From the NCBI GenBank assembly GCA_025408405.1, contig JANYJE010000015.1:1573-65572 (forward strand): a stretch of 64,000 nt of DNA, written 5' to 3'. Made by a program: the position numbers and the translations under genes. Of this stretch, positions 57,619 through 64,000 are shown piece by piece. The notes under the pieces are model-generated. The model saw nothing but the letters and a program-made list of their open reading frames with translations. It had not been told where the DNA came from and searched no databases. The first letter of the stretch is position 1. Each line of letters begins with the position of its first letter. This stretch comes from Nitrosomonadales bacterium (lineage in GTDB: Bacteria; Pseudomonadota; Gammaproteobacteria; Burkholderiales; Gallionellaceae).

Positions 57619-58797
57619 TCAATGCTGCGCAGCGGGTGCGCCACCCACCGTTTCGATGGCATGCCACTTGCCCTGCTGCACCTGATACAAGGTGATCGCG
57701 CCGCCCTTGAGGTCGCCCTTGTCATCGAAGGTGATTTTCGCGGTCACTCCGTCATGGCTGATCCTGGCCAGTTCCGGCAGATATTTTGCCGACTCCGCCG
57801 AGCCCGCCTTCTGCATTGCGTCTATCATCACATTCACGGCGTCGTAGCAATACGGCGCATACAACTGGATCGGCTGCTTGAATTTCGCCTCGTAGCGCTG
57901 CGCAAAGTCGCGCCCGCCTGGCATCTGATCCAGCGGCACCCCTGGCAGGGAAGCGTACATCCCCTCTGCCGCAGCGCCCGCCAACTCAATCAGCTTGGGC
58001 GTGTAACCGCCGTCACCCATCATGAACTTTGCATTCAGTCCGAGCGCCTTGAGCTGCTTGACCAGAGGCACGCCCTGCGGGTCCATGCCGCCATAAAACA
58101 GCAGGTCCGGTTTTTTTCCCTTGATCGAAGTCAGCACCGCAGTGAAGTCCACTGCCTTGTCCGTGGTGTATTCGTGCGCCACGATTTGCGCGCCGCGCGC
58201 CTGGGCGGCCTTGATGAATTCGTCTGCCACCCCCTGGCCGTATGCGGTACGGTCATCGATCACCGCAATGCTTTTTGCCTGCAGTTTTTTTACCGCGAAC
58301 TCACCCAGTACCCGCCCCTGCTGGCCATCGTTGGCCATCACGCGAAAAGCTGTTTTGTAGCCCTGCGCGGTGTAAGCCACGGCAGTGGCGGAAGGAGAAA
58401 TTTGCGCGATGCCATTGTCGTTATAGATTCTGGCTGCAGGGATGCTCGTTCCCGAATTCAGGTGGCCGATCACCCCGTTCACCTTCGCGTCCACCAGCTT
58501 CTGCGCCACGATGGTGGCCGTCTTGGGGTCGGTCTGATCGTCTTCGCTGAGCAACTCGAAGCGCGCACGGCGTCCGCCTATCGTCACGCCTTTGGCATTG
58601 GCGTCTTCTATCGCCATGCGCGTGCCGTTCTCGTTGTCCTTGCCGATATGCGCCTGCGGCCCGGTAAGCGGCGCAGCCGCACCTATCTTCACCACCAGCT
58701 CGTCGCCGGCAGCATGAGGGGCTTCAGATTTACTGCAGGCAAGCAGAGTGGATGCCAGCAAAGCGGATAACAACAGCGTGCTTGAATTACGTAACAT
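57619..58797 (-). CDS. livK: branched-chain amino acid ABC transporter periplasmic substrate-binding protein
   Basis: It has a signal peptide with a lipobox-like LLAC and a type I PBP fold (KIGAAAPLTGPQAHIGKDNENG...VIGHLNSG). The start is set at MLRNSS. Confidence 0.85.
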   Translation of the reverse strand: MLRNSSTLLLSALLASTLLACSKSEAPHAAGDELVVKIGAAAPLTGPQAHIGKDNENGTRMAIEDANAKGVTIGGRRARFELLSEDDQTDPKTATIVAQKLVDAKVNGVIGHLNSGTSIPAARIYNDNGIAQISPSATAVAYTAQGYKTAFRVMANDGQQGRVLGEFAVKKLQAKSIAVIDDRTAYGQGVADEFIKAAQARGAQIVAHEYTTDKAVDFTAVLTSIKGKKPDLLFYGGMDPQGVPLVKQLKALGLNAKFMMGDGGYTPKLIELAGAAAEGMYASLPGVPLDQMPGGRDFAQRYEAKFKQPIQLYAPYCYDAVNVMIDAMQKAGSAESAKYLPELARISHDGVTAKITFDDKGDLKGGAITLYQVQQGKWHAIETVGGAPAAQH

Positions 58798-58879
58798 GAT
58801 GGATAGTGCCCGCAAAATAAGGCTGGGATTATGCGGAGCCCCTGCCCACCTTGTCAATTTTCATGCAGCGCTTGCGTAT

Positions 58880-58910
58880 AAAAAAAGGCCGGCTTGCGCC
58901 GACCTTTTTC
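58880..58910 (-). terminator. rho-independent terminator after the cytochrome c gene
   Basis: The minus strand reads AAAAAGGTCGGC-GCAA-GCCGGCCTTTTTTT, with one mismatch in the stem. Confidence 0.6.
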
Positions 58911-58928
58911 AGAGGCACACCAGTCCTG

Positions 58929-59384
58929 TTACTTGGCCAGGCCGAGTTCGAATTTAATGATCGCCTTGATTTCCTCATCGGGTACAGCTGGCGAGTTAGC
59001 CGGCATAGGCATGGTGCCCCAATTCCCGGCACCGCCCTTGGATACCTTCATAAACAGGCCGGTTTCCAACGGATAATCTTTGCCTGCAAAATTATAGGTG
59101 CTAACGCCTTTGTACTTTTTGGAAACGTCCATCCAGGCCGGCCCGACTACCTTGTGGTCGATTGCATGGCAAGCCGAGCAATTGTTCTTTTTAGCCAGCA
59201 AGGGCATGCCATCTTTGTCTATAACGCCCAACTCCACCTTGCCCGGCGCAGCAGCAGGTGCAGCCGCAGCAGGCGTGGCCGGTGCTGCCGGAGCAGCTGA
59301 AGTTGCCGGAGCTTTGGTCTCACTCTTGCCGCATGCTGAAAGAATAAACGCAGCCATGGTTAATACCACTAATCGTTTAATCAT
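58929..59384 (-). CDS. class I c-type cytochrome lipoprotein (c551/c552-like) with an Ala/Pro-rich linker
   Basis: The signal peptide carries a lipobox (FILSAC). An (A/P)-rich tether follows (APATSAAPAAPATPAAAAPAAAP). The haem motif is CSACH and the distal Met lies in WGTMPMP. Confidence 0.8.
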   Translation of the reverse strand: MIKRLVVLTMAAFILSACGKSETKAPATSAAPAAPATPAAAAPAAAPGKVELGVIDKDGMPLLAKKNNCSACHAIDHKVVGPAWMDVSKKYKGVSTYNFAGKDYPLETGLFMKVSKGGAGNWGTMPMPANSPAVPDEEIKAIIKFELGLAK

Positions 59385-59561
59385 GAGATTGGTTCCTGTA
59401 TTTACAATTGCTGGTTTCATGTTTTTTCCCATTTGTTTAGGTATTAGTACATTGAGCAACGTTTAGCTTCGACTCAGTCGTGCATTCTATACAACCATAC
59501 ACAGTTTACAAGAGCATCCGCGCGGCGCTTTAGGCATGTGCAGCTTGGCAAAACAGCCGCT

Positions 59562-61415
59562 TCATTTTCTTTCCAGCTGCGACACGTCGCGCACCGCGCC
59601 CTTGTCCGCGCTGGTGGTCATCGCCGCATAAGCGCGCAAGGCAGCCGACACTACACGTTCGCGATTTACGGGCTTCCATGCCAGCGCCCCCTTCTCTTCC
59701 ATCAGCAGGCGGCGGTGCGCCAGCTCGCTGTCGGCAATCGCCAGACGAATCGTGCGCTTGGGGATGTCGATCTCGATCGGATCGTTTTCTTGCACCAGGC
59801 CTATCGCGCCGCCTTCGGCCGCCTCGGGTGAGGCGTGGCCTATCGACAGACCCGAGGTGCCGCCGGAGAAGCGCCCGTCGGTCAGCAGCGCGCAGACCTT
59901 GCCCATGCCCTTGGATTTCAGATAGGTGGTCGGGTACAGCATCTCCTGCATGCCTGGCCCGCCCTTGGGGCCTTCGTAGCGGATCACCACCACGTCGCCC
60001 GCCACGATCTTGTCGGCAAGTATGGCCTCGACTGCGCTGTCCTGGCTCTCAAAGATGCGCGCCCGCCCGTGGAATTTCAGGATGCTGGCATCCACACCGG
60101 CGGTCTTTACGATACAGCCGTTCTCGGCGATGTTGCCGTACAGCACGGCCAGCCCCCCGTCCTGCGAATAGGCGTGTTGCTTGTCGCGGATGCAGCCGTT
60201 GGCGCGGTCGTCATCCAGCGTGGGGTAACGCATGGATTGCGAAAATGCGATGGTCGTCGCGATCCCTCCGGGGGCTGCACGGAAAAATGTTTTTACCGCT
60301 TCGTCGCTGCTGCGCTTGATGTCGTATTTTTCCAGCGCCGCACCCAGGGTCTTGCTGTGCACGGTAGGCAAATCGCAATGCAACAGTCCCGCACGATCCA
60401 GCTCGCCCAGGATGCCCATCACACCGCCCGCGCGATGCACATCTTCCATGTGGTATTGCTGCGAGCTCGGCGCCACCTTGGACAGGTGCGGCACATGGCG
60501 CGACAGGCGGTCGATATCCTGCATGGTGAAATCCACCCCGCCTTCGCGCGCGGCGGCGAGCAGATGCAGCACGGTGTTGGTAGAGCCGCCCATGGCGATG
60601 TCCAGATTCATCGCGTTCTCGAACGCCTTGAAGGTGGCGATGCTGCGCGGCAGCACGCTGGCATCGTCCCCTTCGTAATAGCGCCGCGCCAGATTCACCA
60701 CCAGGCGCCCTGCCTCCAGAAACAGCTCCTTGCGATCGGCGTGCGTCGCCAGGAGTGAGCCATTGCCCGGCAGCGACAGGCCCAATGCCTCGGTGAGGCA
60801 GTTCATCGAGTTGGCGGTAAACATGCCGGAGCAGGAACCGCAGGTGGGGCAGGCGGAACGTTCCAGCTCGTTCACCTCGGCGTCGCTGACGCTGCTGTCG
60901 GCGGCGGACACCATCGCATCCACCAGATCCAGCATGATGGTCTTGCCGCCCCAGTTGACCTTGCCCGCTTCCATCGGCCCGCCCGACACAAACACCACCG
61001 GAATATTCAGGCGCATCGCGGCGAGCAGCATGCCCGGGGTGATCTTGTCGCAGTTGGAAATGCACACCAGCGCATCGGCGCAGTGCGCATTCACCATGTA
61101 TTCCACGCTGTCCGCGATCAGCTCGCGTGAAGGCAACGAATACAGCATGCCGCCGTGCCCCATGGCGATACCGTCATCCACCGCGATGGTATTGAACTCC
61201 TTGGCCACCCCGCCCGCCCGCTCGATCTCGCGCGCCACCAGCTGCCCCATGTCTTTCAGGTGCACATGCCCCGGCACGAACTGGGTGAAGGAATTGGCAA
61301 TGGCGATGATGGGCTTGTCGAAGTCGCCGTCTTTCATCCCGGTGGCACGCCACAAGGCGCGAGCACCGGCCATGTTGCGACCGTGGGTGGTAGTGCGTGA
61401 ACGATAGGCTGGCAT
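59562..61415 (-). CDS. ilvD: dihydroxy-acid dehydratase
   Basis: 617 aa with [33 protein letters not shown], and TDGRFSGG. Confidence 0.95.
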
Positions 61416-61724
61416 GATGCTGCTTCCAAAATATTAGTGAAGCGGTAATTCTAAACTATGGTGGCGGGGAACGTCTTGGCTTTGGGATTGGAATGGCGAA
61501 GGTATTGCAGACTATTGCTACGCACATGAGTATCGCGTAAGGTTCAGCAAGATTCGGTTTTTAAAGTTTTTTTGCAGTGGTGCTTGTATCCGGAAAATCA
61601 GGGGGTGCCATAATTTCACCTCAAATAAAAACAAGGCATTGCGTGAAGGATGCCAGATTGCACACCTCGAAGGTGCCTTTCCCGGCATTTTTTAGGGTGT
61701 CTACTTTACGTTGGGCCTTTGGAG

Positions 61725-62264
61725 ATGAATGTGGATCTTTCTACACTGAAGGACTGGTTGGTTCCGGTCTCAACTTTTGTAACTCTGATAACAGCCTCGG
61801 TGGGCGGCTGGATGTCCTTGCGAGAGTATCGACTCAAAGTTCAAGCCGAAACGCGCCTTGCCAAGAGCACGGAACTTGAAGCCGATGTGAAGTTGCTCAA
61901 GTTATTTACAGAAATCATGAGCATCGCCCACGCGCGTGGCCAAACACAGCTTTCCGAAAAGTTGATTGAAAAGCTTCTGTCACCCGAAACCATGAAAGAA
62001 CTTGGGGTGACCATAGCCAATCTGCGCCCAGTGCTTGAGAGTGCGGTAATTTCACACCCTGTAGGTATCGCAGCCCAGGATGCAGCCATTGCGGCTATTT
62101 GGGCATTGGGCATCAAACATGAGATCTTGCAGCCAGTCGCGATTCAGGCGCTTACTTCACTGACCGGATTCAAGGAAAAAGTTGCGCGACCTTATCTTGA
62201 GGACTTGAAATCAAAATACAGTGGTAAAGAGCTCGCCAATGCAGAACATGAGAAGCAGGCCTAA
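61725..62264 (+). CDS. hypothetical protein (cassette-borne orphan with an N-terminal TM helix)
   Basis: About 179 aa from the ATG at 61725; a GTG at 61731 is also possible. One hydrophobic helix (LVPVSTFVTLITASVGGWM) is followed by a helical soluble part. Its TAA stop lies inside GCCTAAC of the following attC-like site. I recognise no family. Confidence 0.5.
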   Translation: MNVDLSTLKDWLVPVSTFVTLITASVGGWMSLREYRLKVQAETRLAKSTELEADVKLLKLFTEIMSIAHARGQTQLSEKLIEKLLSPETMKELGVTIANLRPVLESAVISHPVGIAAQDAAIAAIWALGIKHEILQPVAIQALTSLTGFKEKVARPYLEDLKSKYSGKELANAEHEKQA

Positions 62265-62331
62265 CCCTTCGGTCAAGCGGGACGCTCCGCCGGCAAGCCG
62301 GCTGCGCGCCCCTTACCTCCAACGTTGAGGC
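62259..62331 (+). repeat. attC-like recombination site A
   Basis: GCCTAAC...(imperfect palindrome)...AACGTTGAGGC. The ends fit the RYYYAAC / GTTRRRY-like core pattern, and the stop codon of the upstream ORF is embedded in the left core. Confidence 0.5.
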
Positions 62332-62485
62332 TGTAGAAAAACTCAAAATGAAAAAATTGTGTTTGTCATGATTACAAAGCGACCTCTCGGAAAGCTCTGT
62401 ATCGAACGATCTCACATCAGGGAGGGGTTTGATGCCCCCGGAAAATCACACCTTCCGACCCATCATTTGGTTTTTCTACAGCCTC
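62327..62485. repeat. 159-bp repeat module 'X1' bounded by perfect 16-bp inverted repeats
   Basis: GAGGCTGTAGAAAAAC (62327-42) and GTTTTTCTACAGCCTC (62470-85) are perfect inverted repeats. The module is flanked by GTT on both sides. Its ~120-bp core is repeated at ~63376-63495, and a degenerate copy lies at ~61590-61716. Confidence 0.55.
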
Positions 62486-62507
62486 GTTATGCATAGGATA
62501 AGAATCC

Positions 62508-62594
62508 GTGGCGATTTTTGACATCTTCTCAAAGCGGCAGAAAAAACTACGGGGCGAGATACCGGATGTCCACAATTCCATCAACCCGGACTAG
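62508..62594 (+). pseudogene. 5' remnant of a cassette gene (28 codons)
   Basis: From a GTG it reads VAIFDIFSKRQKKLRGEIPDV, then an out-of-context HNSINPD and a stop. The N-terminal string resembles the start of a longer conserved family (possibly AbiJ-N-terminal-domain-like, from memory). An AGGA lies upstream. Confidence 0.3.
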
Positions 62595-62619
62595 CTTACA
62601 GCGGGCTTCGCCCGCCTCT

Positions 62620-62735
62620 AGCCAACCCGGAGACCTCAGGGTCAGATACCTTACATTTGACATGTCAAATGTAAGGCCCTCGCTTTTCCCTACGCCGACA
62701 AGCCGGCTTCGCGCTCCTCAACTCAAACGTTGGAC
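62620..62735 (+). repeat. attC-like site B containing a 28-bp perfect palindrome
   Basis: AGCCAAC...CCTTACATTTGACATGTCAAATGTAAGG (62649-62676)...GACAAGCCGGCTTCGCGCTCCTCAACTCAAACGTTGGAC. The 3' half aligns with the 3' half of site A. Confidence 0.4.
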
Positions 62736-62738
62736 GTC

Positions 62739-62993
62739 TCAATAATGAAAGCGCAACTGGGCAATCATCAATGCATCATTCTCGACGCGATACACCATGC
62801 GATGCTCATCTGTGATTCGGCGTGACCAAAACCCCGAGAGCGCATGCTGCAACGGTTCGGGCTTGCCCACTCCGGTGAAAGGCTCACGCTGTGTCTCCCG
62901 TATTAGCTTGTTGATTCGATCAACCATGCGCTTGTCTTGCTTCTGCCAATACAGGTAGTCTTCCCATGCCTCGTCAGCGAAAATCAGTTTCAC
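62739..62993 (-). CDS. yoeB: YoeB toxin (type II TA, ribosome-dependent mRNA interferase)
   Basis: 84 aa. It is near-collinear with E. coli YoeB: MKLIFADEAWEDYLYWQ...GKPEPLQHALSGFWSRRITDEHRMVYRV...RFHY. Confidence 0.9.
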   Translation of the reverse strand: MKLIFADEAWEDYLYWQKQDKRMVDRINKLIRETQREPFTGVGKPEPLQHALSGFWSRRITDEHRMVYRVENDALMIAQLRFHY

Positions 62994-63241
62994 TTGGACA
63001 GCTTCCGCTCAACGCCTTTGCCAGAGTTCAGTTGTGCGGCAGCCGCGAGAAGGCGCTTCGCGTTGGCGGGTGTGCGCAACAGGTAGGCAGTCTCCTCCAG
63101 CGCCTTGTAGTCTTCGAGGGAGAGCATCACGACGGACTGTTCTCCGTTGCGAGTAATAATCAAAGCTTCGTGGTCGTCACAAACGCGATCCATGGCGCTG
63201 GCGAGATTCGCGCGAACGGTGGTATAGCTAATTGCATCCAT
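62990..63241 (-). CDS. yefM: YefM antitoxin (Phd/YefM family)
   Basis: 83 aa with MDAISYTTVRANLASAMDRVCDDHEALIITRNG...SLEDYKALEETAYLL. An AAGGAG SD is present and its stop overlaps the yoeB start. Confidence 0.9.
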   Translation of the reverse strand: MDAISYTTVRANLASAMDRVCDDHEALIITRNGEQSVVMLSLEDYKALEETAYLLRTPANAKRLLAAAAQLNSGKGVERKLSK

Positions 63242-63250
63242 AGCGGGGCT

Positions 63251-63280
63251 CCTTGTATATGTACGTGTTACTGTACGCCG
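63251..63280 (-). promoter_or_regulatory. candidate yefM-yoeB operator/promoter with GTAC-core repeats
   Basis: The + strand reads CCTTGTATATGTACGTGTTACTGTACGCCG, immediately upstream of yefM. It contains two TGTAC cores about 12 bp apart, as in the E. coli yefM operator (from memory). Confidence 0.4.
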
Positions 63281-63311
63281 CAAATAGCAAGCTGTCCAGT
63301 GCAACGGCGCC

Positions 63312-63502
63312 GCCCAACCCTGCATTCGAGCGCTCAGAACCTCAGGGTCACGTACCTCAGCTCAAATGGTGTCTGCTATGAATACAAAACGACCTCTCAA
63401 AACGAGCTGTATTCGACGATCTCACTTCGGGGAGGGGTTGCGTGACCCCGTAAAAATGCACCTGCCAACCCCTTGTCTAGTTTTTCTACAGCGTCGTTAG
63501 GC
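63312..63502 (+). repeat. attC-like site C plus repeat module 'X2'
   Basis: GCCCAAC (63312-18)...ACCTCAGGGTCA... followed by the X core (63376-63495), ending ...GTTTTTCTACAGCGTC-GTTAGGC (63496-63502). X2 lacks the left 16-bp arm seen in X1. Confidence 0.4.
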
Positions 63503-63541
63503 GTCTTGATCCCCAGGCCTTCCTGTAGCGCGTATGGTCGC

Positions 63542-63569
63542 TTGACAAGCGTACGCAATGGCGTACTAT
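63542..63569 (+). promoter_or_regulatory. sigma70-like promoter with an embedded GCGTAC direct repeat (candidate antitoxin operator)
   Basis: TTGACA-N16-TACTAT. The spacer contains GCGTAC-GCAATG-GCGTAC. An AAGGAG SD lies 6 nt before the ATG at 63595. Confidence 0.5.
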
Positions 63570-63594
63570 TTAGGCTTCTTTGAAGGAGCATGAA

Positions 63595-63837
63595 ATGAAC
63601 ACACTTACCGCCAGCGAAGCTCGCGCAAATCTGTACCGGCTCATTGATCAAACAGTAGAGTCTCATGAGCCAATCATCATTTCCGGAAAACGCAGCAGTG
63701 CCGTGCTGCTTTCCGCAGAAGACTGGAGCGCAATTCAAGAAACATTGTACCTGCTAGCCGTGCCCGGCATGCGCGAGTCCATCAAGACTGGCATGGCCGA
63801 ACCCCTCGCAAAAAGCTCAAAGGCGCCTAAGTGGTGA
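63595..63837 (+). CDS. Phd/YefM-family antitoxin
   Basis: 80 aa with MNTLTASEARANLYRLIDQTVESHEPIIISGKRSSAVLLSAEDWSAIQETLYLL. Confidence 0.85.
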   Translation: MNTLTASEARANLYRLIDQTVESHEPIIISGKRSSAVLLSAEDWSAIQETLYLLAVPGMRESIKTGMAEPLAKSSKAPKW

Positions 63838-64000
63838 GTTGGGAAGTTGTTTATGCAAAGCAAGCAATGAAGGACGCAAAGAAGCTTGCTGCAAGTGGCC
63901 TTAAATCAAAGGCACAAGAACTGCTTGCGGTTCTTGCCAGCGACCCATTTCAAAATCCACCACCCTTCGAAAAGTTGGTCGGTGATCTTGCTGGCGCATA
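63834..64000 (+). CDS. Txe/YoeB-family toxin, 5' part (runs off the window end)
   Basis: The GTG start overlaps the antitoxin stop (GTGA). The translation is VSWEVVYAKQAMKDAKKLAASGLKSKAQELLAVLASDPFQNPPPFEKLVGDLAGA, typical of the N-terminus of this family. Confidence 0.7.
   Translation, partial: MSWEVVYAKQAMKDAKKLAASGLKSKAQELLAVLASDPFQNPPPFEKLVGDLAGA

Follow-up and report, generated by a model that had tools for sequence, protein, structure and literature searches.

What is the 159-bp repeat that sits exactly at the crossover point of an attC site, and by which route did it get there? Integron cassette arrays are the main gene-capture system that spreads resistance and other accessory genes. 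The array examined here has no integrase gene and lies between ilvD (59565-61415, minus strand) and lgt, which is located beyond the end of the window, that is, the whole 64,000-nt stretch of DNA analysed (C15:1573-65572, where C15 is one of the 98 contigs of a 2.5-Mb assembly that is 93% complete). It comprises an orphan ORF and two YefM/YoeB toxin-antitoxin cassettes. An earlier sequence-only reading had drawn attention to the repeat, hereafter X1, and had offered three explanations for it and its relatives (X): an unusually long species-specific attC family, an ORF-less cassette, or a MITE that targets attC sites. Comparison of the sequences favours the third. X is in all likelihood a gene-less MITE, most likely moved in trans by an IS1182-family DDE transposase acting on the same ends, and it belongs to a lineage specialised on attC.

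X1 occupies positions 62327-62485 of the + strand; X2 and the attC parts next to X1 and X2, described below, lie on the same strand. It was delimited by a repeat finder, BLAST, and a family profile built from 56 non-redundant members, of which it matched positions 1-159 (E=1.3e-34). The length of 159 bp and the perfect 16-bp terminal inverted repeats reported previously were confirmed, the arms being complementary at 16/16 positions according to the repeat finder. The left arm, GAGGCTGTAGAAAAAC (62327-62342), is identical at 15/16 positions to the left ends of two insertion sequence (IS) copies in the same genome (C66:16648-16663 and C77:3006-3021). The motif of the right arm, GTTTTTCTACAGCCTC (62470-62485), likewise terminates IS copies and IS remnants. 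The sequence also bears out the GTT triplets on either side of X1 (62324-62326 and 62486-62488).

The attC upstream of X1, site A (62259-62326), consists of the R'' core GCCTAAC (62259-62265), which contains the stop codon of the upstream cassette gene, followed by L boxes and a spacer up to the GTT at 62324-62326, which forms the left repeat of the target duplication. The right GTT copy and the remainder of the original R' core, GTTATGC, follow X1 at 62486-62492. The earlier prediction that removal of X1 plus one GTT would restore a plausible R' core proved correct: the deletion yields ...CCTCCAACGTTATGC (also written ...CCAACGTTATGC), and the restored site folds into an attC-like hairpin with R'' paired to R', an unpaired spacer, and a bulged stem, as in attC sites. 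According to the repeat finder, site A is related to the attC at 62690-62732.

To find elements with the same termini, we searched the genome with the 16-mer end and then paired the 'solo' ends. Two complete IS were recovered. One spans 1817 bp at C66:14847-16663, has the ends GAAGCTGTAGAAAAAC...CTTTTTCTACAACCTC and is flanked as ctacGTT-IS-GTTaggc. The other spans 1761 bp at C77:1261-3021, has the ends GACGCTGTAGAAAAAC...CTTTTTCTACAACTTC and is flanked as aaacGTT-IS-GTTatgc. Their common end pattern is GA[AC]GCTGTAGAAAAAC...CTTTTTCTACAAC[CT]TC. In both, an uninterrupted transposase gene (about 506-523 residues) runs in the opposite direction to the cassettes. The 523-residue protein scored 285.7 bits against the NCBIfam model NF033551 ('IS1182 family transposase'), which is above the curated cut-off of 270, and it also matched PF13751 (DDE_Tnp_1_6), PF05598 (DUF772), and PF01609 (DDE_Tnp_1). 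The remaining solo ends were IS remnants, each adjoining an attC at its GTT: C67:11117-11185 is a left end of 69 nt, and C15:66150-66213 and C22:13466-13531 are right ends. A more distant IS1182 element of 1631 bp (C68:61076-62706) has ends, GAGGCTGTGTAAAAAC and GAGGCTGTGTGAAAAC, that agree with those of X at 14/16 and 13/16 positions. It carries GCCG on both sides and does not lie within an attC. Thus, ends of this kind are a property of the transposon family rather than recombination sites or a feature of integrons. In genome G017, the left end of a related IS agrees with X at 24 of the first 27 bases of X.

X shares its ends, its GTT flanks, and its orientation with the full-length IS1182 elements, which supports the MITE reading. 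The same terminal repeats, flanks, and orientation recur in IS1182-family IS of dozens of other genomes. X is small, lacks a transposase gene, carries terminal inverted repeats and a GTT duplication, ends like an IS, and is present in multiple copies at different sites. From the shared ends, we infer that X is probably mobilised in trans by the IS transposase.

BLAST and profile searches revealed additional copies of X both in this genome and in its relatives. One full-length copy, 96% identical to X1 by BLAST, is located 163 bp past the end of the window (C15:65735-65893), and another, 98.7% identical by BLAST, is found at C66:19519-19677. The genome thus holds three full-length copies that are 96-99% identical to each other, plus a 5'-truncated one, X2. 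Each full-length copy sits in the context ...ACGTT-X-GTTA.., with a different attC upstream and a different cassette downstream, and the flanks are unrelated right up to the ends of the arms. The proposal of a degenerate third copy at 61590-61716 could not be upheld, as this segment gave no match in BLAST and, even at E<=100 without filters, none to the profile.

X2 (63363-63495), which had been described as a relative of X1 at roughly three-quarters identity by eye, is a genuine one, with 76% identity over 139 nt in the repeat finder and 75.8% over 132 nt in BLAST. It is a diverged copy that retains the right arm, GTTTTTCTACAGCGTC (63480-63495). Its profile match (E=1e-26) covers only positions 27-159, which means that the left arm and some 10 adjoining nucleotides are absent. 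Of the attC upstream of X2, only the left half is present (63312-63362), with the R'' core GCCCAAC at 63312-63318 followed by the fragment ACCTCAGGGTCACGTACCT of a REP-like repeat, which adjoins the truncated X2. On the 3' side, X2 is followed directly by the R' core GTTAGGC (63496-63502). This arrangement suggests a joint loss of the 3' half of the upstream attC and of the left end of X2.

The sequence-only reading had also pointed out that a + strand gene starts just downstream of each copy. This is true, and it carries no extra meaning, since X copies precede such starts because they occupy the 5' boundaries of cassettes. A near-consensus promoter, TTGACA-16-TACTAT, is located at 63542-63569 upstream of the forward yefM-yoeB genes. 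It lies inside their cassette and is therefore a cassette promoter independent of X2.

We then followed the lineage through other genomes. In a scan of one genome per species, the transposase had at least 535 relatives, and more than 7,900 were found in environmental data at E<=1e-50. Among the best 80 of the at least 535 relatives, with loci at 69-85% amino-acid identity, both ends were present in 70. The hosts of these 80 loci include Gallionellaceae, Thiobacillus, Rhodocyclaceae, Sulfuricaulis, Halothiobacillus, Noviherbaspirillum sp. ST 5-3, and Dechloromonas sp. ARDL1. Read in the orientation of the transposase, the flanks were AAC-IS-AAC in 67 of the 70 two-ended IS, '..GCCTAAC' preceding and 'AACGT..' following the element, which on the other strand reads ...ACGTT-IS-GTTAGGC. 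The 67 elements therefore occupy one site in one orientation, which is R' and never R''. In the plasmid collection, no high-identity relative of the lineage was detected, the best match having at most 44% identity and being found in Pseudoalteromonas.

Full-length homologues of X itself occupy the same position elsewhere: with 66-71% identity in four genomes of the same genus or family, and also in four other families of the order (f12, f33, f40, and f60), where they were found in seven genomes. Nearly all of these homologues are attC-borne in the form GTT-X-GTTAG; in one exception the left flank does not resemble attC, and in the other, a duplicated copy, the left end is altered.

A metagenome scan for two ends spaced 110-140 nt returned at least 120 contigs. 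Among the metagenome matches listed, 159 of 184 strand matches had GTT/GTT or AAC/AAC flanks, and most others were one base off. This tally is unbiased, and the GTT positions in the logos of 111 elements were set by the search pattern. Outside the triplet, position -4 was C in 105 and position +4 was A in 106 of the 111 GTT-oriented elements among the matches listed, and positions +5 to +7 read (G/T)(G/A)(C/T), matching the R' consensus. The right flank of these 111 MITEs accordingly has the consensus GTTA(G/T)(G/A)(C/T). In a lenient detection test, an R''-like core was found 50-120 nt upstream of 69% of the sites versus 30% of shuffled flanks, and the restored sites folded better than shuffles, with a mean z of -2.6. 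Over genomes and metagenomes together, the X family has at least 70 members of 155-160 bp, apart from one of 147 bp. The metagenomes (loci L131-L204) also contained at least four unrelated families of MITEs, 164-168 bp in length, whose 16-bp ends and GTT flanks are those of X. Several different passengers thus seem to be moved by one and the same transposase lineage.

The duplication of the GTT was examined at sites without X. When the joined flanks were used as a query in 10 congeneric genomes, homologous attC sites appeared as uninterrupted ...CCCCTCAATTTTACGTTAGGC with a single GTT; for comparison, the X3 site reads ...CCCCTCAATTTTACGTT[X]GTTAGCC. The matches in these 10 genomes were many homologous attC sites, and no empty site of the identical cassette junction was among them. 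At other loci, we observed four tandem junctions of the type right end-GTT-left end, and the regenerated GTT is therefore used again.

GTT triplets on both sides are also left by integrase-mediated cassette insertion, so that the flanks of X alone cannot tell the two mechanisms apart. X could accordingly be an ORF-less cassette, with the integrase cutting between the G and the TT and the folded inverted-repeat stem serving as an unusual attC. The boundaries at GTT are those that cassette insertion gives, although a GTT-duplicating element is expected to show them as well. X is also confined to cassette arrays, and single-stranded X folds strongly (-29.8 kcal/mol, z = -4.7). A cassette has an attC of its own at the 3' side, however, and in the family alignment X contains neither L''/L' boxes nor an RYYYAAC R'' core capable of pairing with the GTTAGGC that lies downstream. 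Without an R''-L''-L'-R' arrangement of its own, its sole conserved pairing is the terminal repeat stem, and the flanks of its copies differ right up to the arm ends. The same ends, moreover, bound 1.8-kb elements with a DDE transposase at the same site, for which transposition accounts without an integrase, and the C68 element carries ends identical at 14/16 positions outside any attC.

The state of the integrase in this genome points in the same direction. The only integron integrase gene above the family cut-off (C66:22491-23207) stops after ...EWAWQ, at about 235 of about 320 residues, and lacks the C-terminal catalytic part. Yet the copies of X are 96-99% identical, which indicates recent movement without the resident integrase. 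An intact integrase gene may have been missed because the assembly is 93% complete and split into 98 contigs, and this argument is therefore supportive rather than decisive. Taken with the structural evidence, it makes the ORF-less cassette a very improbable explanation. Two side observations concern the integrase genes. A small palindrome with attC-like cores, GAAGCCCAAC-N13-GTTGGGCTTC, is located 3' of the truncated gene. At C22:13393-13531, a fragment of a second integrase gene (box II motif HVLRHSFA.HLL) directly adjoins a 66-nt right-end remnant of the attC-targeting IS, followed by GTTGGGC; this remnant begins at the same internal position (TTGACCTTGATA) as the remnant at C15:66150.

We attach next to no probability to the remaining proposal, in which the attC sites of a species-specific family would be unusually long and include X. 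It draws on the position of X between an attC stem and an R' core, and on that of X2, which seems enclosed by an R'' core on one side and GTTAGGC on the other. However, the sites that X interrupts are ordinary attC sites of 60-90 nt with different sequences, and they are complete without it. Most attC sites of the same families, in the genus and elsewhere, do not contain X, and these uninterrupted homologues refute the proposal. X also occurs in several bacterial families in which the attC sequences are unrelated.

Although X is thus best regarded as a MITE, its interior deserves separate consideration. The alignment of 56 non-redundant members, which come from several families, revealed a core of ~100 nt with blocks that are >=90% conserved next to columns that vary freely. 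The most conserved block, with the consensus CGACCTCTCAAAACGCGCTGTATTCGACGATC, corresponds to positions 62380-62412. The family consensus reads ...ATGA.CAAAAATCGACCTCTCAAAACGCGCTGTATTCGACGATC...GGGAAGGGTCAAG.GACCCCCGAAAA...TCGACCCCTCAAGG-right arm, and the motif TCGACC(T/C)CTCAA occurs twice in it. X resembles the IS at the ends only, over the 16 bp of either arm and, on the left, over as much as ~50 nt; therefore, it is not a simple deletion derivative of the sampled IS copies. An origin by internal deletion from the IS was rejected, as BLAST and the X profile, run against 72 IS copies, matched only the ends, and the consensus IS ends differ from the X core. A similarity of X to the start region of the transposase gene, noticed by eye, was not borne out by BLAST, by the profile, or by the IS-end consensus.

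The earlier statement that X1 has no credible ORF holds in substance and needs a correction in detail. A frame of 40-45 codons does run through the core and the right arm (MNKNRPLKTRCIRRS...VFLQPR*). It is open in ~60% of the members and broken in ~40%, and its codon-position entropy is flat (0.93/1.07/1.02). Thus, with the frame broken so often and no codon periodicity, it is not coding. No Rfam family, group II intron models included, matched positions 58000-64000 at E<=1, and a scan for sigma-70 promoters and intrinsic terminators detected none within X1 or X2. The RNAalifold consensus of the family alignment contains only the terminal stem, in which 94.5% of cells are paired across the 56 members and which extends weakly beyond 16 bp. 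The small GC-rich hairpin GGGAGGGG-loop-CCCCC (62420-62439, 7 bp in the consensus fold), which the sequence-only reading had suggested as a small RNA or a protein-binding module, is retained in the family with 85-88% of cells paired, few compensatory changes, and little covariation.

These data bear on the possibility that X is a MITE with a core kept for a function, be it a small RNA, an outward promoter, or a platform for binding the transposase or a host protein. Apart from the conserved blocks, the duplicated motif, and the non-IS origin of the core, this idea finds support in orientation: among the metagenome matches listed, the core of the GTT-oriented elements faces the downstream cassette in the forward direction in 54 cases and in the reverse direction in 2. 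Outward promoters are also known from group IIC-attC introns (PMC3001079). The promoter and Rfam scans, the consensus fold, and the lack of a coding signal argue against it, and the conservation may also reflect recent horizontal spread together with cassettes. We therefore consider a functional core unlikely. Candidate explanations for the conservation are subterminal binding sites for the transposase or host factors, an exapted function, or plain recent spread.

How might an attC-targeting MITE enter and persist in such an array? In the model that we propose, the IS1182-type transposase would cut R' at its GTT with a stagger of 3 bp. Recognition would involve a short sequence (~C-GTT-AGGC) and probably also the nature of attC as an inverted repeat or hairpin, by analogy with IS1272. 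The first bases of X, GAGGC, would then recreate a near-normal R' (GTT-G-AGGC) for the upstream attC. Read from the sequence, the attC end after insertion, GTT-GAGGC, can pair with the R'' core GCCTAAC if one G bulges. The upstream cassette is thus expected to stay excisable, with X becoming the 5' part of the downstream cassette. An integrase could subsequently move X and the downstream cassette as one unit, which would spread X between genomes. An extension of the model, which we regard as doubtful, is that X exploits both mobility systems to deliver its non-IS core of ~100 nt as functional cargo to the 5' ends of cassettes. Such cargo could act as a regulatory RNA, as an unconventional promoter, or as a module that binds protein and thereby modulates recombination at attC.

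The attC parasites known before are only IS1111-type elements and group IIC introns. Elements of the IS1111-attC group (ISPa21, ISPst6, ISKpn4, and relatives, of the IS110/IS1111 family) insert into attC in a site- and orientation-specific manner (Tetu & Holmes 2008, Post & Hall 2009, as cited in PMC12444791), and their DEDD transposase is guided by an element-encoded seekRNA (PMC11187229). The X lineage likewise parasitises cassette arrays at attC with a fixed site and orientation. It differs from the IS1111-attC group, with its DEDD transposase, seekRNA, and subterminal repeats, by a DDE partner of the IS1182 family, 16-bp terminal repeats, a GTT duplication, and abundant MITEs; we know of no target duplication by IS1111-attC elements. 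With group IIC-attC introns, it has the attC specialisation and the fixed orientation in common. The introns are retroelements with a ribozyme and a reverse transcriptase that can influence the expression of downstream cassettes (PMC3001079), whereas X measures only 159 bp and contains neither component.

Within its own transposase family, a close parallel is IS1272/TnSha1 of staphylococci, which inserts in or at the foot of a hairpin stem, shows no primary-sequence specificity, and partially deletes the target hairpin without a duplication (PMC4923244, PMC5678879). The IS1182-family transposase, the inverted-repeat or hairpin target, and the 16-bp terminal repeats are shared. Unlike IS1272, the X lineage uses one triplet in the R' core of attC, leaves the target intact, and duplicates the GTT. 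Elements of the IS1202 family related to ISAjo2 target dif/pdif sites 5 bp from the XerC arm, generate a 5-bp duplication, and encode a TnsB-like transposase (PMC10132070). They too are DDE IS whose target is the recombination site of a tyrosine recombinase, entered in one fixed orientation and with a short duplication, but they represent a different IS family, use a different site, and duplicate 5 bp instead of 3 bp. Like classical bacterial MITEs, X is small, non-coding, and present in many copies, has a target duplication, and carries terminal inverted repeats that also bound an autonomous IS. In contrast to them, it is restricted to a single functional site, which belongs to another mobile-DNA system. 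To our knowledge, classical MITEs show at most a short sequence preference.

Full-text literature searches that combined IS1182, MITE, or DDE transposase with attC yielded no description of the lineage. Site-specific IS and MITEs as such are known kinds of element. The lineage represents a second, mechanistically different lineage of attC parasites with many MITEs, and it appears to be common in environmental Beta- and Gammaproteobacteria. The annotation of arrays would be affected, because such an element can pass for an ORF-less cassette or a long attC site, and cassette counts by automated tools will then be wrong. The lineage also offers a natural example of a structured recombination site being recognised in one orientation by a DDE transposase, and this target recognition is open to experiment. 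It may furthermore affect cassette excision, cassette expression, and array stability, the last because the repeats are substrates for homologous recombination and truncated copies lie beside half attC sites, as at X2.

Several minor observations concern the surroundings of X1 and the wider transposase family. The cassette downstream of X1 (62508-62594) holds just a 28-codon remnant (VAIFDIFSKRQKKLRGEIPDV...), which we take to resemble the N-terminus of a longer family with an AbiJ-N-terminal-domain-like character. It is followed by an attC that contains a REP-like palindrome. This dispersed repeat (62633-62680) has a perfect 28-bp palindrome, CCTTACATTTGACATGTCAAATGTAAGG, usually framed by GGGTCAG...CTGACCC, and occurs in about a dozen copies in the genome, also on C22, C35, C39, C44, C61, C85, and C86, mostly outside cassette arrays. 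Finally, Pseudoalteromonas sp. NC201 (NZ_CP022523.1:106722-109301; L255) encodes a distant relative of the transposase with 44% identity and a missing N-terminus, and this locus ends in ...TTATTCTACAGGCTC|GTTAGAGG. Its sequence suggests that attC-type targeting extends to more distant branches of IS1182, with the gene in this case lying in the opposite direction relative to the GTTAG side.
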